Shown here in pieces: positions 11,527 to 60,310 of a DNA stretch of 64,000 nucleotides. The DNA is from a phage. The notes beneath the pieces are model-generated. The model was given only the letters and a program-made list of their open reading frames with translations, was not told where the DNA came from and made no database searches. The position numbers and the translations under genes are program-made. The stretch is from assembly GCA_012401045.1 (NCBI GenBank), contig GCA_012401045.1_4704.1. One strand, given 5' to 3'. Each line of letters starts with the position of its first letter. The stretch's first letter is position 1.

Positions 11527-11546
11527 TAAGTAATATAGCCGTGAAA
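11527..11546 (-). promoter_or_regulatory. conserved upstream motif copy 1 (candidate phage promoter)
   Basis: Plus-strand TAAGTAATATAGCCGTGAAA, 20/20 identical to 41604-41623; minus-sense TTTCACGGCTATATTACTTA lies ~70 nt upstream of the start codon at 11456. Confidence 0.4.
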
Positions 11547-21874: not shown

Positions 21875-22133
21875 TTACGCCAGGCGGTACCACAATACCG
21901 GTACGAATCACAGCAGCAACTTCCTGCATGCCCTTACCCTTCAACGCATAGGTTTCATGTACCACATTACGTCGAGTCGTTAATCCAACAAATTTACATA
22001 CAACCATGTTGTTTTCTGAAAGATAAGCGGTGTCGAGTTCACCGTGCAACAATTCTTTTTCTTTGGTATCAATACCTAATAACGCAATTTGATAAGCAGA
22101 AAGTTTCCAATAACGCATAATCGTCCTATTCAT
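21825..22133 (-). CDS. hypothetical protein
   Basis: 102-aa ORF overlapping neighbours at both ends; start uncertain. Confidence 0.35.
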   Translation of the reverse strand: MNRTIMRYWKLSAYQIALLGIDTKEKELLHGELDTAYLSENNMVVCKFVGLTTRRNVVHETYALKGKGMQEVAAVIRTGIVVPPGVSDNLDEVLHGTRKTAR

Positions 22134-22953
22134 AAACTATCAAATATTCTGAAACCAAGTTTCTTGTTTCTACTTTTGCCGAAATCGTTCTTCGTACAGT
22201 TACGGGGTACAATTTTGTCGCCGAACTATAAATCTCTTCAGTCAACGCACAAGCACTGTTGCTAATGATTGTAGGAATTCCCCGCGAGCGCAAGTTGTCA
22301 GCCTTTTCTGCAAGATAACGATGATCGTCTAATGTAAACCCCTCTTGAGTATAGCCCGTAAACGATGCGGTGGGGGAAATGGGAATATAAGGAGGGTCGC
22401 AATAAACGACGTCACCCGGAACCACCTTTTCAAGATGCTTCTGGAACCCACCACTTACAATTTCTACCCCCCCCCCCTCGACGAAGGCAGCCTGAAGATG
22501 GTTCGCTGCCAGACGCAATTCCTGTTTCGGGAAATAGACGGTCTTATACCGCCCATGCGCAACATTAAATAAACCATCACGATTATAACGACATAAGCCA
22601 TTGAAACCGTAACGGTTTAAATACATGAAGCAAACTGCGCGTTCCCACGGATCTTCAGCGCGGTTAAAACGTTCACGTATCTCGTAGTAGCTTCTGACGT
22701 CGGTAGGATCCGTTTGAAAAAGACGTTCCACTTCTTCGATGAAAGATTCTGGACGCGCTAGCAACGCAGACCATACTGAGAGAATATCCTCATTCGCATC
22801 ACCTATCGAATACGCTGGGTACTTAAGAGCAAGCGTAACAGCGCCGGAACCAACGAATGGTTCAACAAGACGCTTTCCTTTAGGTAACACTTTTTCAAGC
22901 TCAGGGATAAGCCTGGTTTTGTTCCCAAGCCATTTAAGAAATGTTCTGCTCAT
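22126..22953 (-). CDS. dam: DNA adenine methyltransferase, Dam family
   Basis: N-terminal FLKWLGNK (Dam KWAGGK-like), EPFVGSGAV (FxGxG SAM motif) and catalytic DPPY; co-linear with E. coli Dam over its length. Contains an internal G11 tract. Confidence 0.85.
   Translation of the reverse strand: MSRTFLKWLGNKTRLIPELEKVLPKGKRLVEPFVGSGAVTLALKYPAYSIGDANEDILSVWSALLARPESFIEEVERLFQTDPTDVRSYYEIRERFNRAEDPWERAVCFMYLNRYGFNGLCRYNRDGLFNVAHGRYKTVYFPKQELRLAANHLQAAFVEGGGVEIVSGGFQKHLEKVVPGDVVYCDPPYIPISPTASFTGYTQEGFTLDDHRYLAEKADNLRSRGIPTIISNSACALTEEIYSSATKLYPVTVRRTISAKVETRNLVSEYLIVYE
22467..22477. repeat. homopolymeric C11/G11 tract inside the dam coding sequence
   Basis: Eleven consecutive C on the plus strand (G11 in gene sense) encoding E-G-G-G-V in frame. 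Confidence 0.9.
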
Positions 22954-30849: not shown

Positions 30850-31731
30850 TCAATAACAGTTATAATGGGTTCCAAGCCGCTCCGGTTTTCTCAGAAGACT
30901 ATCTTTAAGCGGTACGACGTCGATATCAACGTTTTCTGAATAATAACCATTAGAACTACCATACCAACGAATAACAACACATCCTTTTGCTGTACGAATA
31001 TGGTAAAACGTCCATCGCGTACGTTTGCAAAAGTCGTCATCCTCGTCTCTTTCCTCGGTTCTTTCTTCAGCGCTAAGTATCTTCTCACCAATAATGTCGT
31101 TAAGATCGCCATCGATGTCTTCAAGGTACACTTTTTCACAGCAATCTTGCTTATGGCAGAATTCAACAACGTTCCCATCGCCCCGATAGAAAAGAAGGGC
31201 AATACTGTATTGTAGCTGTTCGGCCGTTAAGTCTGTGGCGCAATACAAACTTTGATCTTCGGTTATCACCAAGACATTGTTGATTACGTGTCCGGCAAGC
31301 GCTCCGATCTTATTTACCGTGATAATCGGACGAACCGGTTCAGGTTGAACGATAGGGATACGAACACAGCCAATTAAAGCCATCCGTCCTTTCTTTGGTC
31401 TAACCGCAAGGTAAGGTGATTTTCTTGGGTGGTTATGTAGTCGTATTTCTACCTCGTTGAATTTAATCCCGTATATACCCAAAAACCGATCGAACAGTTT
31501 ATGAAATTCCTCGGTTGCCTCTTGCAGTGTGATGTTATTTACCGTGAGTTTATGTCCCCTGAACACCCGGGTTAAATCGATAACATCCAGTGTTTTGAAA
31601 TATATTTCCGTAAGGGGATGATCGGTGTTTTCCAGGTAAGTAATTGTTCTTTGAACCACGATTTTAGGTTGTGCACCTTTAAAACGTTTCAGGTATTTAA
31701 CACGATAACGGGTATGATCTGATGTTAACAT
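30850..31731 (-). CDS. hypothetical protein
   Basis: Track ORF trimmed to ATG at 31731 with GGAGAGGAG RBS, removing overlap with the upstream terminator hairpin. Confidence 0.5.
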   Translation of the reverse strand: MLTSDHTRYRVKYLKRFKGAQPKIVVQRTITYLENTDHPLTEIYFKTLDVIDLTRVFRGHKLTVNNITLQEATEEFHKLFDRFLGIYGIKFNEVEIRLHNHPRKSPYLAVRPKKGRMALIGCVRIPIVQPEPVRPIITVNKIGALAGHVINNVLVITEDQSLYCATDLTAEQLQYSIALLFYRGDGNVVEFCHKQDCCEKVYLEDIDGDLNDIIGEKILSAEERTEERDEDDDFCKRTRWTFYHIRTAKGCVVIRWYGSSNGYYSENVDIDVVPLKDSLLRKPERLGTHYNCY

Positions 31732-31789
31732 TTTAATCTCCTCTCCCGACTTCAGAGAATTCTTAAAATCCGTTAGTTTTGATAGACAG

Positions 31790-31827
31790 GATAAGACGGC
31801 ATAAAAGCCTCCCGTAATGGGAGGCTT
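31790..31827 (-). terminator. intrinsic terminator
   Basis: 9-bp stem AAGCCTCCC/GGGAGGCTT at 31805-31827 followed on the minus strand by UUUUAUGCC. Confidence 0.6.
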
Positions 31828-31838
31828 CATTAATCAGC

Positions 31839-39746: not shown

Positions 39747-39812
39747 CTTTATCTCCTTAACAGGTGCTGGTAACGCAGCATAAACCCTCCCCGAAGGGAG
39801 GGCGATTAACGA

Positions 39813-41603: not shown

Positions 41604-41623
41604 TAAGTAATATAGCCGTGAAA
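41604..41623 (-). promoter_or_regulatory. conserved upstream motif copy 2 (candidate phage promoter)
   Basis: Identical 20-mer ~45 nt upstream of the start codon at 41558. Confidence 0.4.
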
Positions 41624-46770: not shown

Positions 46771-49032
46771 TTACAATTCAAAATCTTCATCGATAACACG
46801 CTGGGTAAGCACTTTGTCGCTGAAGAACTCCACCTTGCGCTGATGGTATTTACGGTGCGCTTCGATAGAAGTACATACCAGATACCAGAACGTTGGCGTC
46901 ATTCCTTCAAACTTTCCTTTCAGCTGACGCAGTCGCCCCAACACCTGAATGTTACCGGTTCGTGACCCCATCGCTAATGTCATGAACGTCATCACCAAGT
47001 CAGGAAGGTCGATACCTGTACCTGCCGATTTCACCGTTGTAACGCTAATATCGTTATCCAGCAAGACCATGAAATCTTCTTCAGCGGTATAAGGACCGAT
47101 CTCTAACTCAGGGATACGTTCACTGAGATAATGCGACAACGACTTACACATATCGACGGTTGCACAATACACCAGCATCTTCATACCTTCCTGATACTGG
47201 TTCATGAAACCCTTGATAATAACGGTATAGATGAAGTTAAAATACGCGAGTTTGAGTTGCTTGTTCTTCATGATAGACTGTTCGAATATCGTGTGTGAAT
47301 AAGCTCCACCAAACCCTTTGTATCTGACTTTATCTGTACTGCGTAGTCGGTACGTTACCGCATTTACCGCAATGTATTTCTTGTATTCGCCTTTCGCATA
47401 ACGAGCTTCTTTCGGATACATCAAATACAGCATCTGTTCGATAAACGGATCATCGGATACCGCTGTTGCCGACAGATAAATGATTTCCGGAATATTGGCG
47501 TAACACTTGACCTTAAACAAGAAATGCAATGCTTCGTGACACTCGTCATGAATCAGCAAACCTATGCCGGTCTTTTCCCAAAACTCAGCGGGATGAAAGG
47601 CATATGGCGCAACGCAGTTATTCTTCTCGTAGTCCGCAATATAACGTTGGAACATGTTCAAGGAGAACAATGCGATTTTAAAGTCGAGTTCACCTTGTTC
47701 AACCAAGGTTTGAAACTCCAACATACTGTAACGAGGAATGTCGGGATGCGGTGGATCCTCCTTAGCGTTCCCGCGTATCTCGATAACGTCCCCTGGTTCC
47801 ATCCCGAAGAAGTTCAGCAGTGAGCTTCGCCAACCTGGCATATACCGTGGAGAAAGTATAATGCCTGTGCGCACACCCCGTCTGAACACGATTTCCTGCG
47901 ACATCGCGGTGTTATGCGTGACGATGTGGTCTTTAATAACATAAAGGCTTTCGTCATTGTCCACCGTGATGCAACGTGCTTTCGCTTTCACTGTCGGTAC
48001 GATGCTATCAATCGCTAAACCAGGAAGCCGGTTAACGGGGAGATCGTCTGGAACCTCAATGTCGTCAGGAATAAGCTTACGCAAATCGGAATGATAAATT
48101 AATGTCTCCATCGTGTAACTATCGATGGGGCATTTATACGCGATTCCTCCTAACTGATAAGCCAACTCCCAAACCTTGGCCGTTATCTGCGAATCGACGG
48201 TTCTGACCGCAAGGTGAGCTTGCCCGTTTCTGATTCTCAGTTCACAGCGACCTTTGATTACCGCCTTAAATTCCTCGATACCGACGAGTTCTTTCGGTTC
48301 GTAAAGTCGGATTCTTATTGGACGAGATCGAGCAGGTCTGTCGTAAAGACATTCCATGATTTCGTCCGTGCTGAGAACCTTATCGGGGTCAGTACACCGC
48401 CAGAGATGATCGCCACACGCTTCAACCATCCTACCGTCTTCAAAGAAGATAGCATGAAGCTGAATATCGTCATGATCAAATATAGCGGTTACGTTCGTCG
48501 GTAACCCATCCGCACCAACAACCTGATCCCCTACCTGAAGCTCACCAATCGGCTTCCAACCTCCTGGAACCTTCACGGGTGTGGTAAGCCGTACCGCTTT
48601 CCCTGACCCCGTTTGAGCGGTGTTTAGGCTCATTCTGAAGGGGGTATCCTTACCCCCGTCCATGTACTCCAACCATTCTTGCTGATCTTCACGCCATGGA
48701 AACTTCCATTTCTTTACGAACTCCACTTCTTTACCTGGTACCGGATCGTGATAGACGATTTCCAACCACTCTTTTCGTATCCCTCGGGAAAAGATAAAAT
48801 CCAAAAACGATTTCAACTGTTCACGGAGTAAGTATACCTCGCTATAATCGCTTCTTGCCGCGGCATACGTGTTTATGGTATCGGTAACCATTCTCCGTGT
48901 ACGAGGGTCACGCCGTTTCCTCAGATGCAAACAACGGTCTCGAAGGTAATGGCCGATAAGATGGGCAAATCGAAGTCCGTATCCGCTCAGCCTCATGCCA
49001 TGCGAGAAGACGTCGATACGAGCTAACTTCAT
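46771..49032 (-). CDS. SF2 DExH-type helicase with an intein-like insertion in the P-loop
   Basis: AQTGSGK then ~229-aa insertion then TAMSQ (reconstituting GSGKT); downstream DECH (motif II), SAT (motif III) and QVLGRLRQ (motif VI). Confidence 0.6.
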   Translation of the reverse strand: MKLARIDVFSHGMRLSGYGLRFAHLIGHYLRDRCLHLRKRRDPRTRRMVTDTINTYAAARSDYSEVYLLREQLKSFLDFIFSRGIRKEWLEIVYHDPVPGKEVEFVKKWKFPWREDQQEWLEYMDGGKDTPFRMSLNTAQTGSGKAVRLTTPVKVPGGWKPIGELQVGDQVVGADGLPTNVTAIFDHDDIQLHAIFFEDGRMVEACGDHLWRCTDPDKVLSTDEIMECLYDRPARSRPIRIRLYEPKELVGIEEFKAVIKGRCELRIRNGQAHLAVRTVDSQITAKVWELAYQLGGIAYKCPIDSYTMETLIYHSDLRKLIPDDIEVPDDLPVNRLPGLAIDSIVPTVKAKARCITVDNDESLYVIKDHIVTHNTAMSQEIVFRRGVRTGIILSPRYMPGWRSSLLNFFGMEPGDVIEIRGNAKEDPPHPDIPRYSMLEFQTLVEQGELDFKIALFSLNMFQRYIADYEKNNCVAPYAFHPAEFWEKTGIGLLIHDECHEALHFLFKVKCYANIPEIIYLSATAVSDDPFIEQMLYLMYPKEARYAKGEYKKYIAVNAVTYRLRSTDKVRYKGFGGAYSHTIFEQSIMKNKQLKLAYFNFIYTVIIKGFMNQYQEGMKMLVYCATVDMCKSLSHYLSERIPELEIGPYTAEEDFMVLLDNDISVTTVKSAGTGIDLPDLVMTFMTLAMGSRTGNIQVLGRLRQLKGKFEGMTPTFWYLVCTSIEAHRKYHQRKVEFFSDKVLTQRVIDEDFEL
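47911..48597 (-). mobile_element. putative intein (Hint domain, about 229 aa) within the helicase gene
   Basis: N-terminal AVRLTTPVKVPGGWKPIGELQVGDQVVGADG resembles Hint block A; C-terminal RCITVDNDESLYVIKDHIVTHN followed by Thr resembles blocks F/G (HN plus nucleophile). Confidence 0.5.
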
Positions 49033-51035
49033 AACGTGATTACATCCTCCGGTTTAGGTTCTTTACGCGGTAACAGCATGTAGTCGATCGGATGATCCGG
49101 CTTCATGGTTGGGATATAACTGTTCGGGTTTTGGAACGCATCCAGTTGCTCTTGGTGAGCGAACTTCATACTCAAGGAGCGCATGTTCATGTTCTTCTTG
49201 AAGGTACTGAAGTATCGTGTTGTTCCCTGTTTCGGCATGCGATAATCTTTCGTGTGTGGCGAACGAATCATGCTGGCGTAGAGAATAACATCGAGATGCG
49301 AAAGGTTCATTCGTAGGCGCTGGGCACACAGACGATGCCAATAATACAGCACGTTTGCAACTTCTTCCGGTGTTGCTTCGTCTTCCGAGAGGAATCCGGC
49401 ACTGAAAGAACCTTTCCCGAATTTGAATTCACGTTCGATTTCTTTTGCGTACTCCATCATGTTTTTGTGGATTAACGGCATCTGGAATAACATACGTGAA
49501 TTGTCCCAATGTTTCAAGTCGAAAATCACAATCCCGTCAGACGTCACTTCCCAGCTATGGCGTTTAAGATAACGGATAAACGCTTTACTCGGTACAACAG
49601 GACGGCCGCAGAAATCGAAATTGACTTTGAGCTTACGATAGCTTTCATCTTTCCTGTCGTAAATCTCCATATCGCAAAGCGTCATGTTAAACAGACGTTG
49701 CGGTATCAGCGAACCGATTTCTTCCGCTTCCGCTACGTCGTACAACATGTTTGCAAGACCTAACTTCATCTTAATCAACACGTGTTTACCTTTCAGCTCA
49801 CGTGCGAGTTTGATGTCGTTCATGTTCTGGCTATAGCGAAGGATATGTTGATATTCCGGTGGGATTGGTGCTGTGGATACCGTTGACGAACCATCGTGGT
49901 GTTTGGTAGAAAGAATGTTCTGCGTTACCTGTTGCGAACAGGTACGCGCTGCACCATCGCCGACATTATCAGTCAATGCGAAGTTATGGCTTAATTCACC
50001 ATAACACGTCGTACATACCCCAGCAGGATCGGGATGATGACAATAGTTAACGGAGCGCATGCGCACCGTCGTGCCGATCAATTCTTTCATGTGTGGTTGT
50101 ATCGCTACCAACGAACCGTCATCACGAATAATGAATCGACCATGGAAGCCACGCAGGTCGGTCTCATCACGGATTGGCATCGGGATGGTCTCTTTACTAC
50201 CACAATCACCAGGATGAAGTCGTTGTACAACCGCTGTCGCTATCTGAAGTTCACGACCGAAATATTCAGACTTTTTAATCTGCTCTTTGTTGAACAGCAA
50301 CGATTTCGCCGCAGAACGACTTTCTTTCAAGCTGTCGGGAAGAGAGATCAAACCAGCTGCGTACGACCGCATTACTGGATCACGGAATATCTCGGAGTTA
50401 ATATCAGTCAAGAATCCACGCATCCCAATACACTGTAGCACCTGCCCAATCGAAACGTGTTCGGTTCTTACCGCACGTGCAATAGGGTTTGCATGTAACG
50501 TTTTATCGGTGCTCAGTACCTTGGTCAGTTTCTTGTATGCGCTTTCGATACCTTCACGGGTGGGTTCCGCTTCGGCGATGATTTTCTTAACTTCGGGGTG
50601 TACAGTAATCTGATAAAAATCATCCGCGCAAATCGTTGTTACGTATTCCTCCAACGCATACGTAAAGAAGTTATACACATTGTTAAACATATCGAACAAT
50701 GCTTTCCAGAGAACCTCACGATTCTCTTGTGGGTAAGCATACATGCATTGACGATACGCGGCGCTTTGCAACGCAACCGATGAACCCGCTGTGAACTTGC
50801 GTTTATCAACCAGGTTCTCTTTTGTCAGTGGTGTCTCAGGATACATGCGATGCACAGACCAGTGCATGTAACTAAAGAAAATGCGTCGCGCACGCAATTC
50901 ATGAACGCCATCGTCCATCTCGATATATACACGGTCATTAGGCTGTGCCCACTCGAACACCTCATCAACCGGCCAATGCATAAGCTCGCGTGCCCTCACA
51001 CGACGTTTCGTGGTGGTCGTCTGTGTTATAGTCAT
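49029..51035 (-). CDS. hypothetical protein with Cys/His cluster, translationally coupled to the helicase
   Basis: 668 aa; CHHPDPAGVCTTCYGE cluster; stop overlaps helicase start (ATGA). Confidence 0.5.
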   Translation of the reverse strand: MTITQTTTTKRRVRARELMHWPVDEVFEWAQPNDRVYIEMDDGVHELRARRIFFSYMHWSVHRMYPETPLTKENLVDKRKFTAGSSVALQSAAYRQCMYAYPQENREVLWKALFDMFNNVYNFFTYALEEYVTTICADDFYQITVHPEVKKIIAEAEPTREGIESAYKKLTKVLSTDKTLHANPIARAVRTEHVSIGQVLQCIGMRGFLTDINSEIFRDPVMRSYAAGLISLPDSLKESRSAAKSLLFNKEQIKKSEYFGRELQIATAVVQRLHPGDCGSKETIPMPIRDETDLRGFHGRFIIRDDGSLVAIQPHMKELIGTTVRMRSVNYCHHPDPAGVCTTCYGELSHNFALTDNVGDGAARTCSQQVTQNILSTKHHDGSSTVSTAPIPPEYQHILRYSQNMNDIKLARELKGKHVLIKMKLGLANMLYDVAEAEEIGSLIPQRLFNMTLCDMEIYDRKDESYRKLKVNFDFCGRPVVPSKAFIRYLKRHSWEVTSDGIVIFDLKHWDNSRMLFQMPLIHKNMMEYAKEIEREFKFGKGSFSAGFLSEDEATPEEVANVLYYWHRLCAQRLRMNLSHLDVILYASMIRSPHTKDYRMPKQGTTRYFSTFKKNMNMRSLSMKFAHQEQLDAFQNPNSYIPTMKPDHPIDYMLLPRKEPKPEDVITL

Positions 51036-51180: not shown

Positions 51181-51666
51181 CTATCCAGCTTTCTGTTGTA
51201 AAGCGTATGGATCCATAGCGTCTGACATATCCGCAAAAACGGTGAGAATAAACCCCTTTATCTGTCTCACCTCGGTTACACGAAGCCCTTTATCATTGCG
51301 ATATACGTTTTCTTCACCGACTAACTTTGGTCGAATAACATAAACTCCATCAACAAGCGGGAATGTCGGATACGGATAAATACCAATACGAATGATGTTT
51401 GGGTGATCGCCTAGAAGGTCACGTCCAAACTTATCGACTCGACCATAAATCGCCCCATCCGCACCTTCCACTTCAATGAGATCATTTCGAATATCCTGAA
51501 ATAGTTGCTCTAACGTGTCGGCGGGATACGTATATGCGATGCCTAACGCAGGATCCTCGATCGTTTTGACACTGAAACCGTTAAGCCAAACAATCCGTTC
51601 ATCCGCCCATGTTTCTTCATATACCGTTAATCCATCGCCGTATATGTTGGCGTGTGCTATCTCCAT
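51181..51666 (-). CDS. hypothetical protein
   Basis: 161-aa ORF; no motif recognised. Confidence 0.45.
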   Translation of the reverse strand: MEIAHANIYGDGLTVYEETWADERIVWLNGFSVKTIEDPALGIAYTYPADTLEQLFQDIRNDLIEVEGADGAIYGRVDKFGRDLLGDHPNIIRIGIYPYPTFPLVDGVYVIRPKLVGEENVYRNDKGLRVTEVRQIKGFILTVFADMSDAMDPYALQQKAG

Positions 51667-51759
51667 AATCTCATTTCCTCTTCTACGTAGAAATAGATGA
51701 CATGTTGGATATACGTTGCCTTTGCATATATTGCTTTATTTCCGTCAGAAATAACGGAA

Positions 51760-51809
51760 AATAAAACAACGACATAGTTCCCTCCCACCTCCACGTGGGA
51801 GAGGGAGGG
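51760..51809 (-). terminator. hairpin terminator
   Basis: GC-rich imperfect stem CCCTCCCAC...GTGGGAGAGGGAGGG followed on the minus strand by a UUGUUUUAUUUUCC tract. Confidence 0.55.
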
Positions 51810-51822
51810 CTATTCGTGTTTA

Positions 51823-52185
51823 TTACTCTATGCTATCTTCGTCCGTATCTTCCTCTTCAGAACCATCGAACGTTTTCTGCACCGCTGTGGTATCCCAGTT
51901 AGCTGCGTAATCAGCCATCGCTTCGCGCAGCGCTTCTTCACCAGCATCACCAGCCAGGTCAAGTACAACTAAACCCTGTGCGACGTTTTGAGCAACGGTA
52001 TCGATAACGGTTGCATCTTCTTCAAAACTACGTACCGGTTCAATGGTACCTACATCAACAGCGTAGTTCGTGGTTGCTGTAAGCACGGCGACTTGTAGCG
52101 CATTGCTATCTTCATCATGCAGTGCTGCTTCAATACCGATTGGACGAGCCAGTTCTTGCAGTGTTAATTTGCGAATTAAGTTCAT
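51823..52185 (-). CDS. small acidic protein (paralogue family)
   Basis: AQGLVVLDLAGDAGEEAL parallels ARGLMLLELFGEQGRTEL of 52683..53093; N-terminus parallels 52218..52565; acidic C-terminal tail. Confidence 0.45.
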   Translation of the reverse strand: MNLIRKLTLQELARPIGIEAALHDEDSNALQVAVLTATTNYAVDVGTIEPVRSFEEDATVIDTVAQNVAQGLVVLDLAGDAGEEALREAMADYAANWDTTAVQKTFDGSEEEDTDEDSIE

Positions 52186-52217
52186 TATGTTTTCCTCAGG
52201 TGAATGTTAGCAATCGT

Positions 52218-52565
52218 TTAAAACTTTAAAACTTTTTCGATACGATGGTTGACAAGTTCATTGAACGACTCTTCAACTTGTTCAATGATTTCATCAACGT
52301 CGATATCTAATTGTTGGGGTTGGATAACATGCTCTTTCATGGTTTCCAGCCAGTATTCGGCTTTAACCATGACGTTAGCGACGTGTTCGACCTGGCTGCG
52401 TATGTCGACGATCTGGCAGTCAGGATTGTTAATGTCGATGATGTGTCCGTGGTGGTTGATAAAACCTAGCTTGTTTGATGCCCTTACTGCATCACGAGTC
52501 AGTTCTTGCAAAATTAAATTATTGACGTAGTTCACTGCTACGGAACGATTTTCATTATCACTCAT
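52218..52565 (-). CDS. small acidic protein (paralogue family)
   Basis: N-terminal NNLILQELTRDAVR parallels NLIRKLTLQELARPIG of 51823..52185. Confidence 0.45.
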   Translation of the reverse strand: MSDNENRSVAVNYVNNLILQELTRDAVRASNKLGFINHHGHIIDINNPDCQIVDIRSQVEHVANVMVKAEYWLETMKEHVIQPQQLDIDVDEIIEQVEESFNELVNHRIEKVLKF

Positions 52566-52620
52566 ACCAGGGATCCTTTTAAGTCTTCACATTCTAGTGT
52601 TAAGCAGTTAAAATAAACCG

Positions 52621-52671
52621 TTCCTTTAATCAGCATAAACATCCTCCTCCCACCACATGGGCAGGAGGAGG
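52621..52671 (-). terminator. hairpin terminator
   Basis: 8-bp stem CCTCCTCC/GGAGGAGG with 13-nt loop; moderately U-rich downstream on the minus strand. Confidence 0.45.
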
Positions 52672-52682
52672 CGTAATATGCA

Positions 52683-53093
52683 TCAGAAAGGAGGACGATC
52701 TTTAAATTCTAACAACGTGTCTTCGAAGCAAGCGATGAGTTCAGACTGCAATTCGGTACGGCCTTGTTCACCGAAGAGTTCCAGCAACATTAACCCCCGA
52801 GCGGTCTTCGTAGCAACCTCTTCGCAGATGCGGAGATCGTGAACTTCATTATCGTTGACATCTTTGCGTAACTGCGCTGCGATAGGCTTAAGATTGCCGT
52901 TTTCATCGTGTTCGTCACGAAATGCATCATAAGCCGCATCGATGTTCGCGATCCGTGTCAATCCTTCAGAATCCCGCCAGTCTCGATATAATCCAAGCAG
53001 GCGATTATGATTCTTCGTTTTGATGTTCGGTGCTGGAAGGTTGCGCAACAGATGTGGTGTAATCATTGCTATCACGCTATCCGAATGATCCAT
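52683..53093 (-). CDS. small acidic protein (paralogue family)
   Basis: Shares the ...A.GL..L.L.G..G...L motif with 51823..52185. Confidence 0.45.
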   Translation of the reverse strand: MDHSDSVIAMITPHLLRNLPAPNIKTKNHNRLLGLYRDWRDSEGLTRIANIDAAYDAFRDEHDENGNLKPIAAQLRKDVNDNEVHDLRICEEVATKTARGLMLLELFGEQGRTELQSELIACFEDTLLEFKDRPPF

Positions 53094-53104
53094 CGTATAC
53101 CTCG

Positions 53105-55273
53105 TTAGCTTTCGCAGTCATCTGCGTCGATGATTTGTCCGCCAGCAACGTTCAGTTGATGATACAGAATCCTCAACGCACGGTTGCCACCAATGGGATA
53201 CTTCTCGAAGTTGGTTGCGATAGGAATCGCTGACGGCTTATCGGTCGCATAGATGCTTTCAGTGATGCTATCCACCTGTTTTGGATTGTTCGCATAATCC
53301 ATAAAGACGCTTGCGAACCATCCGCCAGCAAAGGCGGTCACTTCGCGATGTTCAGATTCACCACAGTAACGAGTCGGTTGCTCTTTACCCGGAGAACTGT
53401 ATTTATCGCTATTACTGAGCTTCGACGGTAATCCATGCGCCTGCAATTTAGGGATACCCACAGCTGACCAATCGTTCGCCGTCTTCTCCAACATCATGAT
53501 GTACGTGTCACCGATCGCAATATCGTTCTTGGTTGTCCGCCACTGCCCAGAACGTCCACGATACCGTACAGGACCTTTCTTCAACGGGAACTCACGAATC
53601 AGATTCTCCATACGTTCTGAACCTGCTGCGATACTGTCCGTCGGGATATAAACTTCCGTACCATGGCGTTGTACGTACCGTAAATGATCCCATTTATCCT
53701 CATCCGTGATACAGTATTTTTCAACAACCTGTTCCACGAATTCAGGACTGACGATATAGTAGTAGCGCATCAGTGTGTTCCAAGCGGTCTCCAGATCGCC
53801 TGCATCCATCACCGGTTTCAGTTCACGCATGATCTGATCACCAACACCGTTGATGTACGGTGCGTTAACACGACTTAAACTCATCCTTTTGATTACCGTG
53901 CTATCGTCGAACATAAAGTCCGCAACGTTACCCCATTGGTCAACCGGCATTTCATCGTCTTCCATGATGTCGGTTACAACGAATTTATCACCCGCCATAC
54001 CGGTGAATTTAAACCCGATACCTGGGACAACGTCATACGTGTATGTGATGGTCACACGCCAATCATCGAGATTCTCTTTGCGGTAATCGCGGGTTGGTAA
54101 CACATGACGTAGCTGTCCGTTGGGATTGCGGATATCAATACCATGTTCAGCATCAGCCAGGTTCAACCACCACATCACCGTTTGATGATGACGTATCGGC
54201 GTACCAACGCGTTCACGTTCGTACTTACGAACAGCATCCTGAATTCGGGTGTAAAGCAAACCGATTGCGTTCTCGTATTTCAGGAATTGACGATACGGAG
54301 GACGCATCTTCTCTTCCATCATAATCGCACGCTCGCGGGCTTGACGTCCAGAACGACGATGTCGGTCGCTGACAACATCGATATCCGTTACACGCGCATT
54401 CGGTTCCGCGTAAGTGAGATCATCGTAAACATAATCCACACGCTGAAGGTTACACGTCATCATGTCAACAACGCTGAGGATAGGATCGATTTCGCGTGTT
54501 GCTGCAAGTAACCCATCCTTACGAATACGCTCACCGTTCTCGGGTATTGCTTGATATACCTCATCATCACCGTAGAGATTGATTGGGTATCGTGATTTAC
54601 CTGATGTGATCGTTCGCTTCTCAATGCCGGTACTGGTGAAATGCTTCAATACACCACGACGGGCAACACCACCATCCTCGATACACTGATAGAAGCTACC
54701 GAAACACACTTTGCAATCGCGACCGTAACCCCACTCGCGCGTTTCTTGATTGATCGCTGGGCTTTCCATCAAACGAGAATATCGCGGTACGATCTGGCCT
54801 CGACGAAGGGAATGGAACAAGTTGGTTGGTCGAAAACGGAAACCGTACTGCTGATGCATGATGTGATGCTCAGGCACTTCAAGCAAGCGTAGCTCGTGGC
54901 GGTTACCATCCTCTTGGTTTTCGTACAGCACGTAATGCATCGTGTTTGTTTTGATGCTGTTTGCTGTATGCCCCGGTTGGAAACGTGGGATGATATCTAT
55001 GATGCGAGATTCGACTGGAAACTCTACTGACCACGTGTTCTGTCCGTACTGGTATTCGATCCCCGTCGTCAGTCGGGACGGTTTCGCATCTTTGATAACC
55101 AACGCTTGGCTAAGATGTCCACCAAACATCGCAGCGCGCTGTGCTGAGTTATAATGCAGTAGCCCGTTAAGTCCAGTCCCTACGCCAGTATACTCCTGTT
55201 TAATGGGAATGATTTTACCTTCAGCGATTGCCTGCTTCACAGATTCATAAAGAGGTTTTTCTTTATAATGCAT
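53105..55273 (-). CDS. large hypothetical protein, possible divergent RNA polymerase beta-like subunit
   Basis: Track ORF trimmed to ATG at 55273 with AGGAAG RBS. Weak by-eye resemblance to the C-terminal conserved regions of bacterial RpoB (GMAGDKF...EDDEMP...SRVN...GDQI; IGDTYIMMLEK; GESEHREV). Confidence 0.5.
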   Translation of the reverse strand: MHYKEKPLYESVKQAIAEGKIIPIKQEYTGVGTGLNGLLHYNSAQRAAMFGGHLSQALVIKDAKPSRLTTGIEYQYGQNTWSVEFPVESRIIDIIPRFQPGHTANSIKTNTMHYVLYENQEDGNRHELRLLEVPEHHIMHQQYGFRFRPTNLFHSLRRGQIVPRYSRLMESPAINQETREWGYGRDCKVCFGSFYQCIEDGGVARRGVLKHFTSTGIEKRTITSGKSRYPINLYGDDEVYQAIPENGERIRKDGLLAATREIDPILSVVDMMTCNLQRVDYVYDDLTYAEPNARVTDIDVVSDRHRRSGRQARERAIMMEEKMRPPYRQFLKYENAIGLLYTRIQDAVRKYERERVGTPIRHHQTVMWWLNLADAEHGIDIRNPNGQLRHVLPTRDYRKENLDDWRVTITYTYDVVPGIGFKFTGMAGDKFVVTDIMEDDEMPVDQWGNVADFMFDDSTVIKRMSLSRVNAPYINGVGDQIMRELKPVMDAGDLETAWNTLMRYYYIVSPEFVEQVVEKYCITDEDKWDHLRYVQRHGTEVYIPTDSIAAGSERMENLIREFPLKKGPVRYRGRSGQWRTTKNDIAIGDTYIMMLEKTANDWSAVGIPKLQAHGLPSKLSNSDKYSSPGKEQPTRYCGESEHREVTAFAGGWFASVFMDYANNPKQVDSITESIYATDKPSAIPIATNFEKYPIGGNRALRILYHQLNVAGGQIIDADDCES

Positions 55274-55304
55274 AGGACTTCCTATTATCGAATTGAGGTA
55301 CGTC

Positions 55305-55658
55305 ATGTCTAACACGCCCCTGAACGACTTTCTTAAGACAAACCCCGATGACCTCATCCACGATCTTGATTTCAGGAACGTTGTTGAGATGCATCTGGAA
55401 TATTTCAAAAATGCCGGACTGGTCTCTACGATAGACATACCACCCGAACGCGCCTACGAATTCGATGGTAACTTTTATGGATTGTGTCGTGTTCTGCTCG
55501 GTGAGGGCAGTGAACCAATGCACTGGATAACCATGAGACTCAATGGTTATCGCGACCCTACGGAATACACCGCCGATGTTCTAACCATGAAGATTGTCGA
55601 TACAAGCGCAATCAACACATTAAAACAACAGTACCGCACAATCCACTACAGCGCTTAA
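55305..55658 (+). CDS. hypothetical protein (plus-strand island)
   Basis: ATG at 55305 with GAGGT RBS; followed by a hairpin terminator; divergent from the large minus-strand gene. Confidence 0.4.
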   Translation: MSNTPLNDFLKTNPDDLIHDLDFRNVVEMHLEYFKNAGLVSTIDIPPERAYEFDGNFYGLCRVLLGEGSEPMHWITMRLNGYRDPTEYTADVLTMKIVDTSAINTLKQQYRTIHYSA

Positions 55659-55663
55659 GATAA

Positions 55664-55700
55664 CCCTCCCACAGCGTAAAGCGTAGGGAGGGCATTTATG
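55664..55700. terminator. bidirectional terminator-like hairpin
   Basis: Stem CCCTCCC/GGGAGGG between the plus gene ending 55658 and the minus gene ending 55724. Confidence 0.5.
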
Positions 55701-57059: not shown

Positions 57060-58646
57060 TTAGAAGTTGCCTTTGGTAGTTACCGCATCCACCAGGTTAA
57101 ACAAATCAACGCTCAGCTTATACACCTCCTGCTGGCTACGGTTGAGCAGCGGGCTGTATGCAGATGGGTTGATGTTCGGCATGGTGTACGGAATCGGTGC
57201 AGAACCGTCAACGCTGATCTTGAACTGGCTGTCCAGGAACAGGTTAATCGCGCCGCTCACCATAACCGCATTCGGGTTGTTGCCCAACATGGAGGGTAGG
57301 ATATTGGTAATCATGTCAGAACGCATTTGTTCAGCAGCACGGTTACAATCGTATCCTTTAATGAACGGCACAGCGTCGGTAACCGCAACCGCCCACTGAC
57401 CAGGCATGATACCGAGTTCTGGGTGACCATGGTTGTCAGCAATGAAACGGAACGATTCCAACATGCGGTATGTCATCGCAGCAGGCATCATTGCAGCAAG
57501 CGATGAACAATACAGCGTTGGATAATCGATCACATCCCAGCTCTGGCTATCGGTCGGCATCCAACCAAACTCGGTGGTTGCTGATGTACCACGACGAGCT
57601 TCCACATACGGGAATAACGTTAAGACATCACGGATATGTTCACCGAACATCCGTTTCATGTCAGCCCAACTCAGGCTACCGCTGAAAGCGAATCCTTCAT
57701 CACGCATAATCGCACCGAATACCGGATGCGCAACCAGAGGTTCTTCACGAACAGCTTGAGCGGCTTCCACGTAAATATCCTCGTTCTCTGCGCTACCTGG
57801 ATGAGACCCGCTTTCGTACGTCTGACGAATAGCACCAACATTATCGAAGGCTTTTCTTAGATAAATGGTTGGGATGTTCGTATCGGCACTAGCGGGTTTG
57901 ATTTTCTCTGTTGCGAAACACATTGCCGCTTCCACACCACGGAAAACCGGTTCCGGTTGCGGTGGGTAGGATGTACGATGAACCACATCAGCGTAGGCGG
58001 GATCGAACTGTTGCATCACGTTCTGCATGGCTGGGTCCATGAACTGGTTATCAAAACCACCATTGCCTACCCAACGTGCTGTTGATGCATAGGTCAGCGT
58101 ATCCTGAACACGAGTACTGAACTGAACATCACGATTAACAGGGTCGTATGCGCCGGTCAACAGGTTCGTTGCGTCCATCGGGGTTGCACGAACGATTTGC
58201 TTACCGAACATATCCGTTGTGGTTGTTTCGGTTACCTGGATTACGTTCGTGAAGAAGAACACCAGTTCATTCGGCAGATCGATAGCACGCGTTGTAAACG
58301 CATCGAGGCTTACAGAATGGTCGGTGTATCCAGAAATGTAATGGACACGCTTGGTTCCTGGTGCGAGGGCCAAGGATTCTTCTACCGCCATCATGAAATG
58401 GAAACGGCGTGTGCCCCAACCATTCGCAATCTCCGAAACCCCCTCAGGTTCTGCAGACTGCTGCAACAAACCGGTTGCAAGCTTATTGATTGCTGATGGT
58501 GTTGTTGCCGTACCGAACCGCGTCGTGTTAATGAAGTCTTCGATGCTACGCATGCTATCTGCGTGGAATCGTAGTGGACGACGTTGTACGTTGTTGTACG
58601 GTGCGGTTTCAACCATCAGTATTTCACGAACATTCATCGGGATCAT
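57060..58646 (-). CDS. hypothetical protein (528 aa)
   Basis: AAGAGGA RBS then A-run before ATG; coupled to the upstream gene (ATGA overlap). Confidence 0.5.
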   Translation of the reverse strand: MIPMNVREILMVETAPYNNVQRRPLRFHADSMRSIEDFINTTRFGTATTPSAINKLATGLLQQSAEPEGVSEIANGWGTRRFHFMMAVEESLALAPGTKRVHYISGYTDHSVSLDAFTTRAIDLPNELVFFFTNVIQVTETTTTDMFGKQIVRATPMDATNLLTGAYDPVNRDVQFSTRVQDTLTYASTARWVGNGGFDNQFMDPAMQNVMQQFDPAYADVVHRTSYPPQPEPVFRGVEAAMCFATEKIKPASADTNIPTIYLRKAFDNVGAIRQTYESGSHPGSAENEDIYVEAAQAVREEPLVAHPVFGAIMRDEGFAFSGSLSWADMKRMFGEHIRDVLTLFPYVEARRGTSATTEFGWMPTDSQSWDVIDYPTLYCSSLAAMMPAAMTYRMLESFRFIADNHGHPELGIMPGQWAVAVTDAVPFIKGYDCNRAAEQMRSDMITNILPSMLGNNPNAVMVSGAINLFLDSQFKISVDGSAPIPYTMPNINPSAYSPLLNRSQQEVYKLSVDLFNLVDAVTTKGNF

Positions 58647-60235
58647 TTTATTTTTTTTCCTCTTAAATTTACTACGTGTTCATTTAATCGAACAACTAAT
58701 TGCACAAGCTGCTGACGGATATCTGCTGGACAAAGCATCAATCCTTTACGGTCAGCTGGGACTTTCTCAAGGATTTCCGGGCCTGCTGCTGAAACATCCC
58801 AGTCCCATTCACAAAACGCATCGGCCACCATGTTAATACCGACAACCGGTAAAGTTGTACGTTCATCTTCATACATGGCGTGTGGATACAATTTATTGAC
58901 AGTAATGATCTCCTGTGGTTTTAATTGGTGGATAATCTGATAAACATCGTCGCGTTTGACCTGGATACCTACGGTCAGCGCGGCCAGTTGAGGAAAACCC
59001 CAATGGTCTAACAAACAAGCTGCGATCGCTAACGCTTTTGCCTGATGCACGGCTTCAATCGGTGCCAGACTTCTCGCCGGAAGATGGCTATCAAGCAACC
59101 ATTGCGCCAGTGCTCGGCATCCGCGGTTGATTGGTTTTAACTCAACGGTGTCATCGTGTTTAGCGTACGTGTATCCGTCGTAACGTTTTGCGATACGCGC
59201 ATACATGTCTTCAACTTTACCGTAAGGTGCCGTTTCGTCGACGTCGTGCAACACACGTTCCATCTGGGTAAGATACGCAATGTCGAGAATGAGTACACGT
59301 GGTGAACGTTTATCTTTCACCATCAACGCATCAATCACGCCTTGACTGTCTTCATCTTGCGCATTCCCTCGCGGCGTTTTCTCGCGAATCGGTCCGCTGA
59401 AACGTCGTTCCGTACAAAGGTTATTCACATAGCTGAAGATCAGTGTTACTAGATGCGTACAACTCACTAACACCCCATCTTTAACGACAGGCTGTACAGC
59501 TTGGTCCAAGTCGCGTACGGCGAGACGGCGGACGATGGCTTGTGAACGCAACCAGCCGGGCACTTTCTCCGTCGACATGTAATCCACGGTCATCGACAGC
59601 GTGATCTTTTTATCACCCGTCTGTGCGCGGATATAGTCTTCCAGTCGGTCGTAAGCGGCGATATCATGAATGCGTGTTTTATACATCAACGACATAGCCA
59701 CTTCTTCTTTACGAACCGTTCCGTACGTTTTCCCTGCGTCAATCAGAAACTCTGCCCAAATCGGCACCATCAGACGGACGTAGATCGCTAACGCCGTTAA
59801 CTCAACGTAATCATTTCGTAAATAGGTTTTCTCAGGTATGTCATCCTCACCTAATGTTGTTTTCATGTCCGGTGGTAATTTTACCCAACCTGGGGTATTA
59901 CACAATGCCAGAATCTCTTCGTACACAACCGGTTTGTAAATTTCACCAACAGCGCGACTCAACTCCTCCATTTGTTGTTGTGGAGCAATGTAGTTATCCA
60001 TCGCTTCACGTGCTTTAACGAACCCTTCGAAGATGTCGTCAATTCGACGTGGGTTCTTTTGTTCTATCCAGGCGAGATACTTGTTAATCTCCCGCATCTG
60101 ATTGCTAGCCATATCCCCATCAATCTTGATGTAACCCTGACCTGAAAATTCCACAGTACGTCCATCACGGTGTTTGATGAGATAGTGATCCAGCTTTTCT
60201 TTTCCTTGCGTCGTAATGACGGGCACTATGTGCAT
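58643..60235 (-). CDS. hypothetical protein
   Basis: Track ORF trimmed to ATG at 60235 with AGAGG RBS; conserved motif ~56 nt upstream. Confidence 0.5.
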   Translation of the reverse strand: MHIVPVITTQGKEKLDHYLIKHRDGRTVEFSGQGYIKIDGDMASNQMREINKYLAWIEQKNPRRIDDIFEGFVKAREAMDNYIAPQQQMEELSRAVGEIYKPVVYEEILALCNTPGWVKLPPDMKTTLGEDDIPEKTYLRNDYVELTALAIYVRLMVPIWAEFLIDAGKTYGTVRKEEVAMSLMYKTRIHDIAAYDRLEDYIRAQTGDKKITLSMTVDYMSTEKVPGWLRSQAIVRRLAVRDLDQAVQPVVKDGVLVSCTHLVTLIFSYVNNLCTERRFSGPIREKTPRGNAQDEDSQGVIDALMVKDKRSPRVLILDIAYLTQMERVLHDVDETAPYGKVEDMYARIAKRYDGYTYAKHDDTVELKPINRGCRALAQWLLDSHLPARSLAPIEAVHQAKALAIAACLLDHWGFPQLAALTVGIQVKRDDVYQIIHQLKPQEIITVNKLYPHAMYEDERTTLPVVGINMVADAFCEWDWDVSAAGPEILEKVPADRKGLMLCPADIRQQLVQLVVRLNEHVVNLRGKKIK

Positions 60236-60290: not shown

Positions 60291-60310
60291 AGGTAATATA
60301 AGCGTGAATA
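60291..60310 (-). promoter_or_regulatory. conserved upstream motif copy 3 (candidate phage promoter)
   Basis: AGGTAATATAAGCGTGAATA shares the GTAATATA-N3-GTGAA core; ~56 nt upstream of the start codon at 60235. Confidence 0.35.

Follow-up and report, generated by a model that had tools for sequence, protein, structure and literature searches.

The gene at 53105..55273 (stop codon included) on the minus strand of the window, which is the whole stretch of 64,000 nucleotides of phage DNA analyzed here, encodes a highly divergent homolog of the RNA polymerase (RNAP) beta subunit that covers the C-terminal half only, about residues 660 to 1292 of Escherichia coli RpoB. This product, betaC, is almost certainly the C-terminal-half beta subunit of the phage's own non-virion RNAP (nvRNAP), and its gene is the ortholog of Goslar gp171, phiKZ gp71-73, and RAY gp248. 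Orthology, fold, conserved catalytic residues, purifying selection, and synteny come from the analysis of the window itself.

The gene and its closest relative

A 20-kb stretch around the betaC gene had only one match in the phage collection, Escherichia phage vB_EcoM_Goslar (MK327938.1 / NC_048170.1, 237 kb), with 96% identity and 92% of the query covered. When the window was compared with Goslar by local BLAST, collinear blocks with 90-97% identity were obtained, together with several insertions and deletions. The nucleotide identity was 97.6% for the betaC gene and about 95-97% for its surroundings. Judged from these alignments, the source of the window is a Goslar-like chimallivirus, a nucleus-forming jumbo phage near Goslar yet a distinct isolate.

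At the protein level, betaC is 100% identical to Goslar gp171 (QBO63964.1 / YP_009820856.1), as indicated by tblastn. Among the 2169 nucleotides of the gene, 53 are different in Goslar; every one of these differences is synonymous, and 52 of them are at third codon positions. Exclusively synonymous changes are direct evidence that betaC is translated and that strong purifying selection acts on its gene. In RefSeq, the Goslar ortholog carries the name "RNA polymerase beta subunit," and the original GenBank record listed gp171 as hypothetical, with a remark on its weak resemblance to a beta subunit of RNAP.

Translation of the open reading frame 53105..55273 yields 722 amino acid residues. An earlier note on this DNA, made from the sequence alone, had placed the open reading frame correctly but had counted 723 residues. 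A longer reading frame reaches as far as 55438; the Goslar annotation places the start at the ATG that corresponds to 55273. A Shine-Dalgarno-like ribosome-binding site, AGGAAG, was read from the sequence at 55278..55283 on the minus strand and ends 4 nt 5' of this ATG. When the whole window was searched with Rfam at gathering thresholds, neither an intron nor any other RNA family was detected. The betaC gene is uninterrupted, unlike its phiKZ counterpart. In phiKZ, gp71 and gp73 flank an endonuclease-containing intron, and the tblastn match comes in two pieces, whereas the gene in the window is continuous.

Homology to RNA polymerase beta subunits

In comparisons of single sequences, the likeness of betaC to cellular RpoB is marginal. 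The Pfam family RNA_pol_Rpb2_6 (PF00562) matched betaC with 16.5 bits (E 0.0049), which is below the gathering cut-off of 23.4 bits, so that betaC did not score as a canonical member of this family. With phmmer, residues 1063-1241 of E. coli RpoB were matched with an E value of 0.0056. Matches to phage proteins extended over the full length and placed betaC in the phiKZ-type orthogroup: PHROG 3295, "RNA polymerase beta subunit," covered residues 24-719 with E 1.5e-180, and PDB entry 7OGP chain C (PHIKZ071) was matched by phmmer with E = 6e-86 in two stretches spanning residues 33-712. The runner-up in the phmmer search was the AR9 nvRNAP chain C with 2e-17. Homologs of betaC were found by tblastn in 308 phage records, in which they are mostly annotated as RNAP beta, and 23 of 27 metagenomic homologs carry PF00562 according to precomputed assignments.

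An alignment of 25 sequences of the betaC family was used for hhalign, for the evaluation of conservation, and for an AlphaFold2 model. The family profile aligned with E. coli RpoB 660-1292 in 564 columns, with a probability of 99.4% and an E value of 2.3e-21. At this level of sequence profiles, the homology between betaC and cellular RpoB is beyond doubt. The model reached a pLDDT of 79.4 and a pTM of 0.70. Its best match in a Foldseek search against the PDB was the phiKZ nvRNAP chain C (8que_C, E 1e-55, TM 0.75-0.78), followed by the AR9 nvRNAP chain C (E 1e-40) and subsequently by hundreds of bacterial beta subunits (around 1e-29). The suggestion of the earlier note that a divergent RpoB-like beta subunit is encoded here, for which a structure search for the RpoB fold had been proposed, was borne out by the hhalign probability and by these RNAP beta matches of the predicted fold. 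Hence, betaC is a remote homolog of cellular beta and no canonical full-length RpoB.

Probable partner subunits in a conserved gene block

The gene at 49029..51035 on the minus strand encodes a beta'-like C-terminal subunit of 668 aa and is orthologous to phiKZ gp74 and to Goslar gp165, to which its product is 99.7% identical. phmmer matched this product to 7ogp_D (PHIKZ074) with E 3.4e-86 and, less strongly, to bacterial beta', and PHROG 3015 was matched with E 2.6e-169. The sigma-like fifth nvRNAP subunit is encoded at 58643..60235, again on the minus strand, by the ortholog of phiKZ gp68 and Goslar gp175. Here, the E values were 6.6e-28 for 7ogp_B (PHIKZ068) by phmmer and 4e-68 for PHROG 3209, and the identity to Goslar gp175, the "putative nvRNAP sigma factor" in Table S3 of Prichard et al. 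(2023), was 99.8%. The phage-encoded multisubunit polymerase that had been considered before is upheld.

The block is ordered as ChmC (the gp176 ortholog), the gp68-like subunit, two conserved unknowns (gp69/70-like), betaC, the gp74-like subunit, and a gp75-like SF2 helicase. This is conserved block 2 (cg10-cg17) of the chimallivirus core genome (Prichard 2023). Five small lineage-specific open reading frames lie between betaC and the gp74 ortholog, unlike in phiKZ.

A beta subunit split into two polypeptides was found, in that the hhalign alignment covers RpoB 660-1292 only and the gene for betaN, the N-terminal half of beta, is located outside the window. In Goslar, betaN is the product of a separate gene, gp039 (phiKZ gp123), and beta'N is gp247, which is encoded beside the chimallin gene. 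The earlier note had also proposed a search for beta'-like open reading frames with a DxDGD motif; in the window, the beta'C ortholog was found but no polymerase gene with DxDGD. The only beta'-type DxDGD match in the window was a DIDGD in the open reading frame 30850..31830. This candidate for beta'N was rejected because its product is a DUF7448 protein and no polymerase. Since this was the sole DIDGD, the gene for beta'N is not in the window. The complete set of five subunits is thus seen only in Goslar, and the betaN and beta'N partners of betaC are outside the window.

Assignment to the non-virion enzyme

In chimalliviruses, there are two multisubunit RNAPs, and in both of them beta as well as beta' consists of an N-terminal and a C-terminal polypeptide (PMC4666361, PMC7598289). 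The virion RNAP (vRNAP) is injected with the DNA, and the nvRNAP is a product of early genes and is responsible for the transcription of late genes (PMC4666361, PMC7598289). In phiKZ, gp71-73 is the nvRNAP subunit that matches the C-terminal half of beta. Entry cg15 in Table S3 of Prichard et al. (2023) equates Goslar gp171 with phiKZ gp071/gp073 and with RAY gp248, so that Goslar gp171 shares this core-genome entry with the "nvRNAP beta subunit 2" of RAY. A fusion of gp248 of the Erwinia phage RAY to GFP is nuclear and localizes with the phage DNA.

Mass spectrometry of the Goslar virion (Table S4) labels gp171, gp165, gp175, and gp247 as "nvRNAP." Of gp171, 1 peptide was detected, which gave a calculated copy number of 0. 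The vRNAP subunits gp78, gp196, gp205, gp207, and gp210 were all present with at least 5 copies per virion. Since phiKZ gp71-73 is the best match, the gene is in the nvRNAP gene block, and the Goslar virion data agree with it, the assignment of betaC to the non-virion enzyme is secure.

Alternatively, betaC may be the beta-like subunit of the virion-packaged vRNAP, which would be injected with the DNA and transcribe the early genes. Chimalliviruses carry two paralogous split beta/beta' sets, and the sequence on its own says only that betaC is a homolog of the C-terminal part of beta. This is nevertheless very improbable, because the top full-length match is an nvRNAP subunit, phiKZ gp71-73, because the betaC gene resides within the nvRNAP block beside the orthologs of gp68 and gp74, and because in Goslar the virion copy number of gp171 is 0 and other proteins are the vRNAP subunits. 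Between the family profile and gp207, a vRNAP subunit of Goslar, hhalign gave only a weak alignment (probability 7.9%), though at the corresponding ED and GDK...K segments, and there was no other family match in Goslar 200-237 kb. A second copy of betaC was not found when the family HMM was run against the open reading frames of Goslar 100-150 kb and 200-237 kb. The combination that would mark a virion RNAP beta subunit, orthology to phiKZ gp149/gp178 or Goslar gp207 together with presence in the virion, was not found for betaC. As a sequence comparator for betaC, the vRNAP paralog is too divergent.

Sequence motifs and active-site residues

All strings quoted in the earlier note are present in betaC in the order given there, which is GFKFTGMAGDKF at residues 420-431, IMEDDEMP at 436-443, SRVN at 467-470, GDQI at 478-481, IGDTYIMMLEK at 587-597, and GESEHREV at 638-645. 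The register of these motifs was taken from the hhalign alignment of the family with RpoB. Four of the six pairings with RpoB proposed before are homologous in this register, namely GMAGDKF with GRHGNKG, IMEDDEMP with INPIEDMP, IGDTYIMMLEK with VGYMYMLKLNH, and GESEHREV with GEMEVWAL. The pairings of SRVN and GDQI were out of register: KRMS at residues 462-465 of betaC is the counterpart of SRMN in RpoB, and LSR is that of GQI.

The motif GFKFTGMAGDKF of the double-psi beta-barrel is encoded at 53981..54016 on the minus strand and contains the lysine residues K422 and K430. In the alignment, G420-F-K422-F-T-G-M-A-G-D-K430-F of betaC is opposite to G1063-D-K1065-M-A-G-R-H-G-N-K1073-G of E. coli RpoB. 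The lysines of RHGNKG had been regarded as not conserved, which was wrong, since K422 and K430 align with K1065 and K1073 of E. coli. Among the 25 homologs, K422 is invariant and K430 is conserved to at least 90%. According to the register of the phmmer alignment, both residues are K386 and K394 of phiKZ gp71-73, which are the two conserved barrel lysines in the nvRNAP structure paper (PMC8287921). The alignments and the modelled fold agree in a double-psi barrel of the beta type with two lysines. The other conserved segment, IEDGG at residues 198-202 (54668..54682, minus strand), is in the hhalign register the equivalent of NFEDS at positions 811-815 of E. coli beta, which contains E813/D814. 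Here, D200 is invariant in the family and E199 is conserved to at least 90%.

The pair R1069/H1070 of RpoB is replaced by M426/A427 in betaC and G1074 by F431. Compared to the family consensus xHGGKG, the Arg-His pair and the final Gly are gone in the MAGDKF motif of the Goslar lineage, and phiKZ has FHGGKG at this site. These changes in the Goslar lineage are probably the reason for the sub-threshold Pfam score. The MAGDKF variant of HGGKG could, though this is unlikely, indicate a slightly altered active site in this lineage.

A stronger interpretation of the replaced equivalents of R1069/H1070 and G1074 in GRHGNKG, and of the Pfam score under the gathering threshold, would be that betaC is an inactive and degenerate relic of a polymerase, or was co-opted, for instance, for a structural or regulatory role. 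This is hardly credible. Relative to Goslar, there were 0 amino acid changes versus 53 synonymous changes; both lysines, the ED pair, and further family-invariant residues are kept; betaC is a core gene in all chimalliviruses (Prichard et al. 2023); and the stretches of the Goslar genome that were examined contained no second annotated gene for an nvRNAP betaC. That short motifs of an unrelated protein just happened to resemble RpoB, as the single-sequence E values of about 0.005 against cellular RpoB and the two of six pairings out of register might suggest, can be dismissed in view of the profile-profile E value of 2.3e-21 over 564 columns and the structure-search E values of 1e-55 to 1e-29 against RNAP beta chains.

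Transcription of the gene block

A scan for sigma-70 promoters between 51.0 and 61.4 kb gave 12 sites versus 16 in shuffled sequence, so that promoters for the host RNAP were unsupported in this region. A candidate early (vRNAP) promoter motif, TTCACGCTTATATTACCT, is located at 60291..60308 on the minus strand, about 55 nt upstream of the gene for the sigma-like subunit and at the head of the block. The 18-nt motif TTCACGSYTATATTACYT occurs in three exact copies in the window, all of them on the minus strand and all of them intergenic, and the core of the copy at 60291-60308 is conserved in Goslar at the equivalent place. In jumbo phages, early operons are preceded by promoters with a conserved, AT-rich motif about 10 nt in length (PMC7598289), and the nvRNAP subunits of phiKZ are early gene products. 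Because the motif fits these early promoters and the phiKZ subunits are early, we infer that the TATATTAC motif at 60291-60308 is an early vRNAP promoter and that the minus-strand block is an early operon. The betaC gene would then probably be transcribed early by the injected virion RNAP, within the block headed by this motif.

The sole plus-strand gene of the block is the gp172 ortholog (PHROG 3455) at 55305..55658. Its start is 31 nt from the start codon of betaC, in divergent orientation. A GC-rich hairpin at 55664-55693, between the gp172 ortholog and gp173, has a T-rich tail that fits the plus-strand gene. Thus, a plus-strand gene at 55305..55658 and a hairpin intervene between betaC and the upstream genes of the block. 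Due to the arrangement of gp172, the transcript of betaC must start in, or read through, gp172 in the antisense direction. A tuning of the betaC supply by sense and antisense transcription with gp172 may be imagined but is unlikely.

Comparison with known enzymes and proposed role

Full-length homology with about 29% identity connects betaC to phiKZ gp71-73 (7OGP/7OGR/8QUE chain C; Yakunina 2015, de Martin Garrido 2021). Both proteins are alike in their fold (TM 0.75), in the two barrel lysines, in their gp68, gp74, and gp75 neighbors, and in the part of beta that they cover. The AR9 nvRNAP betaC of a Bacillus phage (7S00/7S01 chain C) has the split-beta architecture and the fold in common with betaC at an identity of about 18%, and the AR9 enzyme is likewise composed of five subunits, including a gp68-like promoter-specificity subunit. 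In contrast, AR9 is a uracil-DNA phage with no nucleus, and its enzyme recognizes deoxyuridine in the template strand. E. coli RpoB is homologous to betaC from residue 660 to 1292, which includes the double-psi barrel, K1065/K1073, E813/D814, and the GYMYMLKL and GEMEVW segments, but betaC represents only the C-terminal half, with about 15-20% identity and without R1069/H1070. Compared to bacterial RNAP, the enzyme containing betaC would operate without alpha and omega subunits.

In the phiKZ nvRNAP, the beta-side double-psi barrel of gp71-73 faces the DFDGD barrel of gp55 (PMC8287921). Moreover, gp71-73 contributes the flap together with part of the clamp, and its largest interface is with gp68, which is found where a sigma factor would be in the bacterial enzyme and is needed for activity and promoter binding; alpha or omega subunits are absent (PMC8287921). 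A five-subunit, rifampicin-resistant, and promoter-specific polymerase has been established biochemically for phiKZ and AR9.

Because the fold and the key residues are conserved, the same role as that of phiKZ gp71-73 is the natural reading for betaC. Subunit assembly, nuclear location, promoter class, and timing are taken here from the literature on phiKZ, AR9, RAY, and Goslar. By homology with the solved phiKZ enzyme, betaC would supply one of the two double-psi beta-barrels of the active site, and K422 and K430 would contact the nucleic acid beside the catalytic Mg2+ held by beta'N. The flap and a portion of the clamp would come from betaC as well, and the sigma-like fifth subunit would dock mainly on betaC. 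For assembly, betaC should join betaN (gp039), beta'N (gp247), beta'C (49029..51035), and the sigma-like subunit (58643..60235). The resulting enzyme, alpha- and omega-less and rifampicin-insensitive, would be located in the phage nucleus and transcribe middle and late genes there.

Ever since the sequencing of the phiKZ genome, it has been known that phiKZ-like phages have split multisubunit RNAPs. The phiKZ nvRNAP was purified in 2015 (Yakunina 2015), and its structure followed in 2021 (de Martin Garrido 2021). The betaC family, the solved structure of a relative, and the assignment of Goslar gp171 are all already published, so that no new biology is added. A reading of the raw sequence without tools can nevertheless detect a very divergent RNAP beta homolog, and betaC is of practical use as an annotation anchor for the conserved nvRNAP / ChmC block in a nucleus-forming, Goslar-like phage infecting E. 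coli.

The non-virion RNA polymerase genes and their neighbors

The gene of the SF2 helicase (46771..49032, minus strand), the ortholog of Goslar gp164 and phiKZ gp75, encodes 753 aa in the window versus 524 aa in Goslar, and the difference is due to an in-frame insertion of 229 aa immediately past the Walker A motif GSGK (approximately 47911-48597, minus strand), which is absent from Goslar. This insertion starts with AVRLTTPV, ends with DHIVTHN and is followed by Thr, and it matches the structures of the DnaB and gp41-1 mini-inteins (PDB 6rix/6bs8) with an E value of 1e-10. It has Ala1, and by their position its Trp, Cys, and Thr look like candidates for the WCT hallmark of class 3 inteins.

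While no gene is located between gp73 and gp74 in phiKZ, small ORFs orthologous to Goslar gp166-gp170 reside between the betaC and beta'C genes (51181..53093, minus strand), two of which, 51181..51666 and 52683..53093, were searched against PHROG and Pfam and gave no match. The orthologs of gp166 and gp168-gp170 shared 92.9-98.1% amino acid identity with their Goslar counterparts compared to 99.7-100% for the polymerase subunits; judged by these identities, evolution is quicker in these four proteins than in the polymerase subunits. On the other side of betaC lies the sole plus-strand gene within the conserved non-virion RNA polymerase (nvRNAP) block, the ortholog of Goslar gp172 (55305..55658; PHROG 3455, unknown function, core gene cg14). 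It is divergent from betaC with 31 nt between both start codons, so that the 5' regions of the two genes would have to overlap in antisense orientation.

The catalytic motif NADFDGD is universal. The nvRNAP beta'N gene of Goslar, gp247, is located outside the window in a region with an intron and an HNH endonuclease gene (NC_048170.1, 17860-20910). The gp247 product terminates with GYNADF, and its gene continues with a group I intron that matches Rfam RF00028 (46.9 bits) and would thus split this motif. The HNH gene comes after the intron; just past it, GAC GGT GAC (DGD) is followed by GCT TAA. About 340 nt beyond this site, gp185 encodes 79 aa with the N terminus MLNTTMNNHIVP, which resembles the E. 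coli sequence DGDQMAVHVP.

Two other minus-strand ORFs of the window, with 326 aa (30850..31830; DUF7448 domain, E value of 5e-24) and 275 aa (22126..22953), are located in segments without a Goslar counterpart, that is, in gaps between the collinear BLAST blocks.

Candidate transcription signals

Three exact copies of TTCACGSYTATATTACYT were present in the window (60291-60308, 41605-41622, and 11528-11545, all minus strand), each of them intergenic and on the coding strand, and the core recurred at matching positions in Goslar. This sequence is a candidate consensus for the early promoters used by the virion RNA polymerase and may be the "non-sigma70-like upstream motif" named in the earlier note.

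At four sites, (G/A)TTTATGC comes directly after a GC-rich hairpin, at approximately 52643-52671, at 39785-39803, and at approximately 8209 on the minus strand, and at 55664-55693 with the tail on the plus strand. These elements look like a recurrent terminator-type signal. Late promoters of phiKZ have the short consensus TATG (PMC7598289), and since TATG is also contained in the hairpin tail, combined terminator-promoter units are conceivable.
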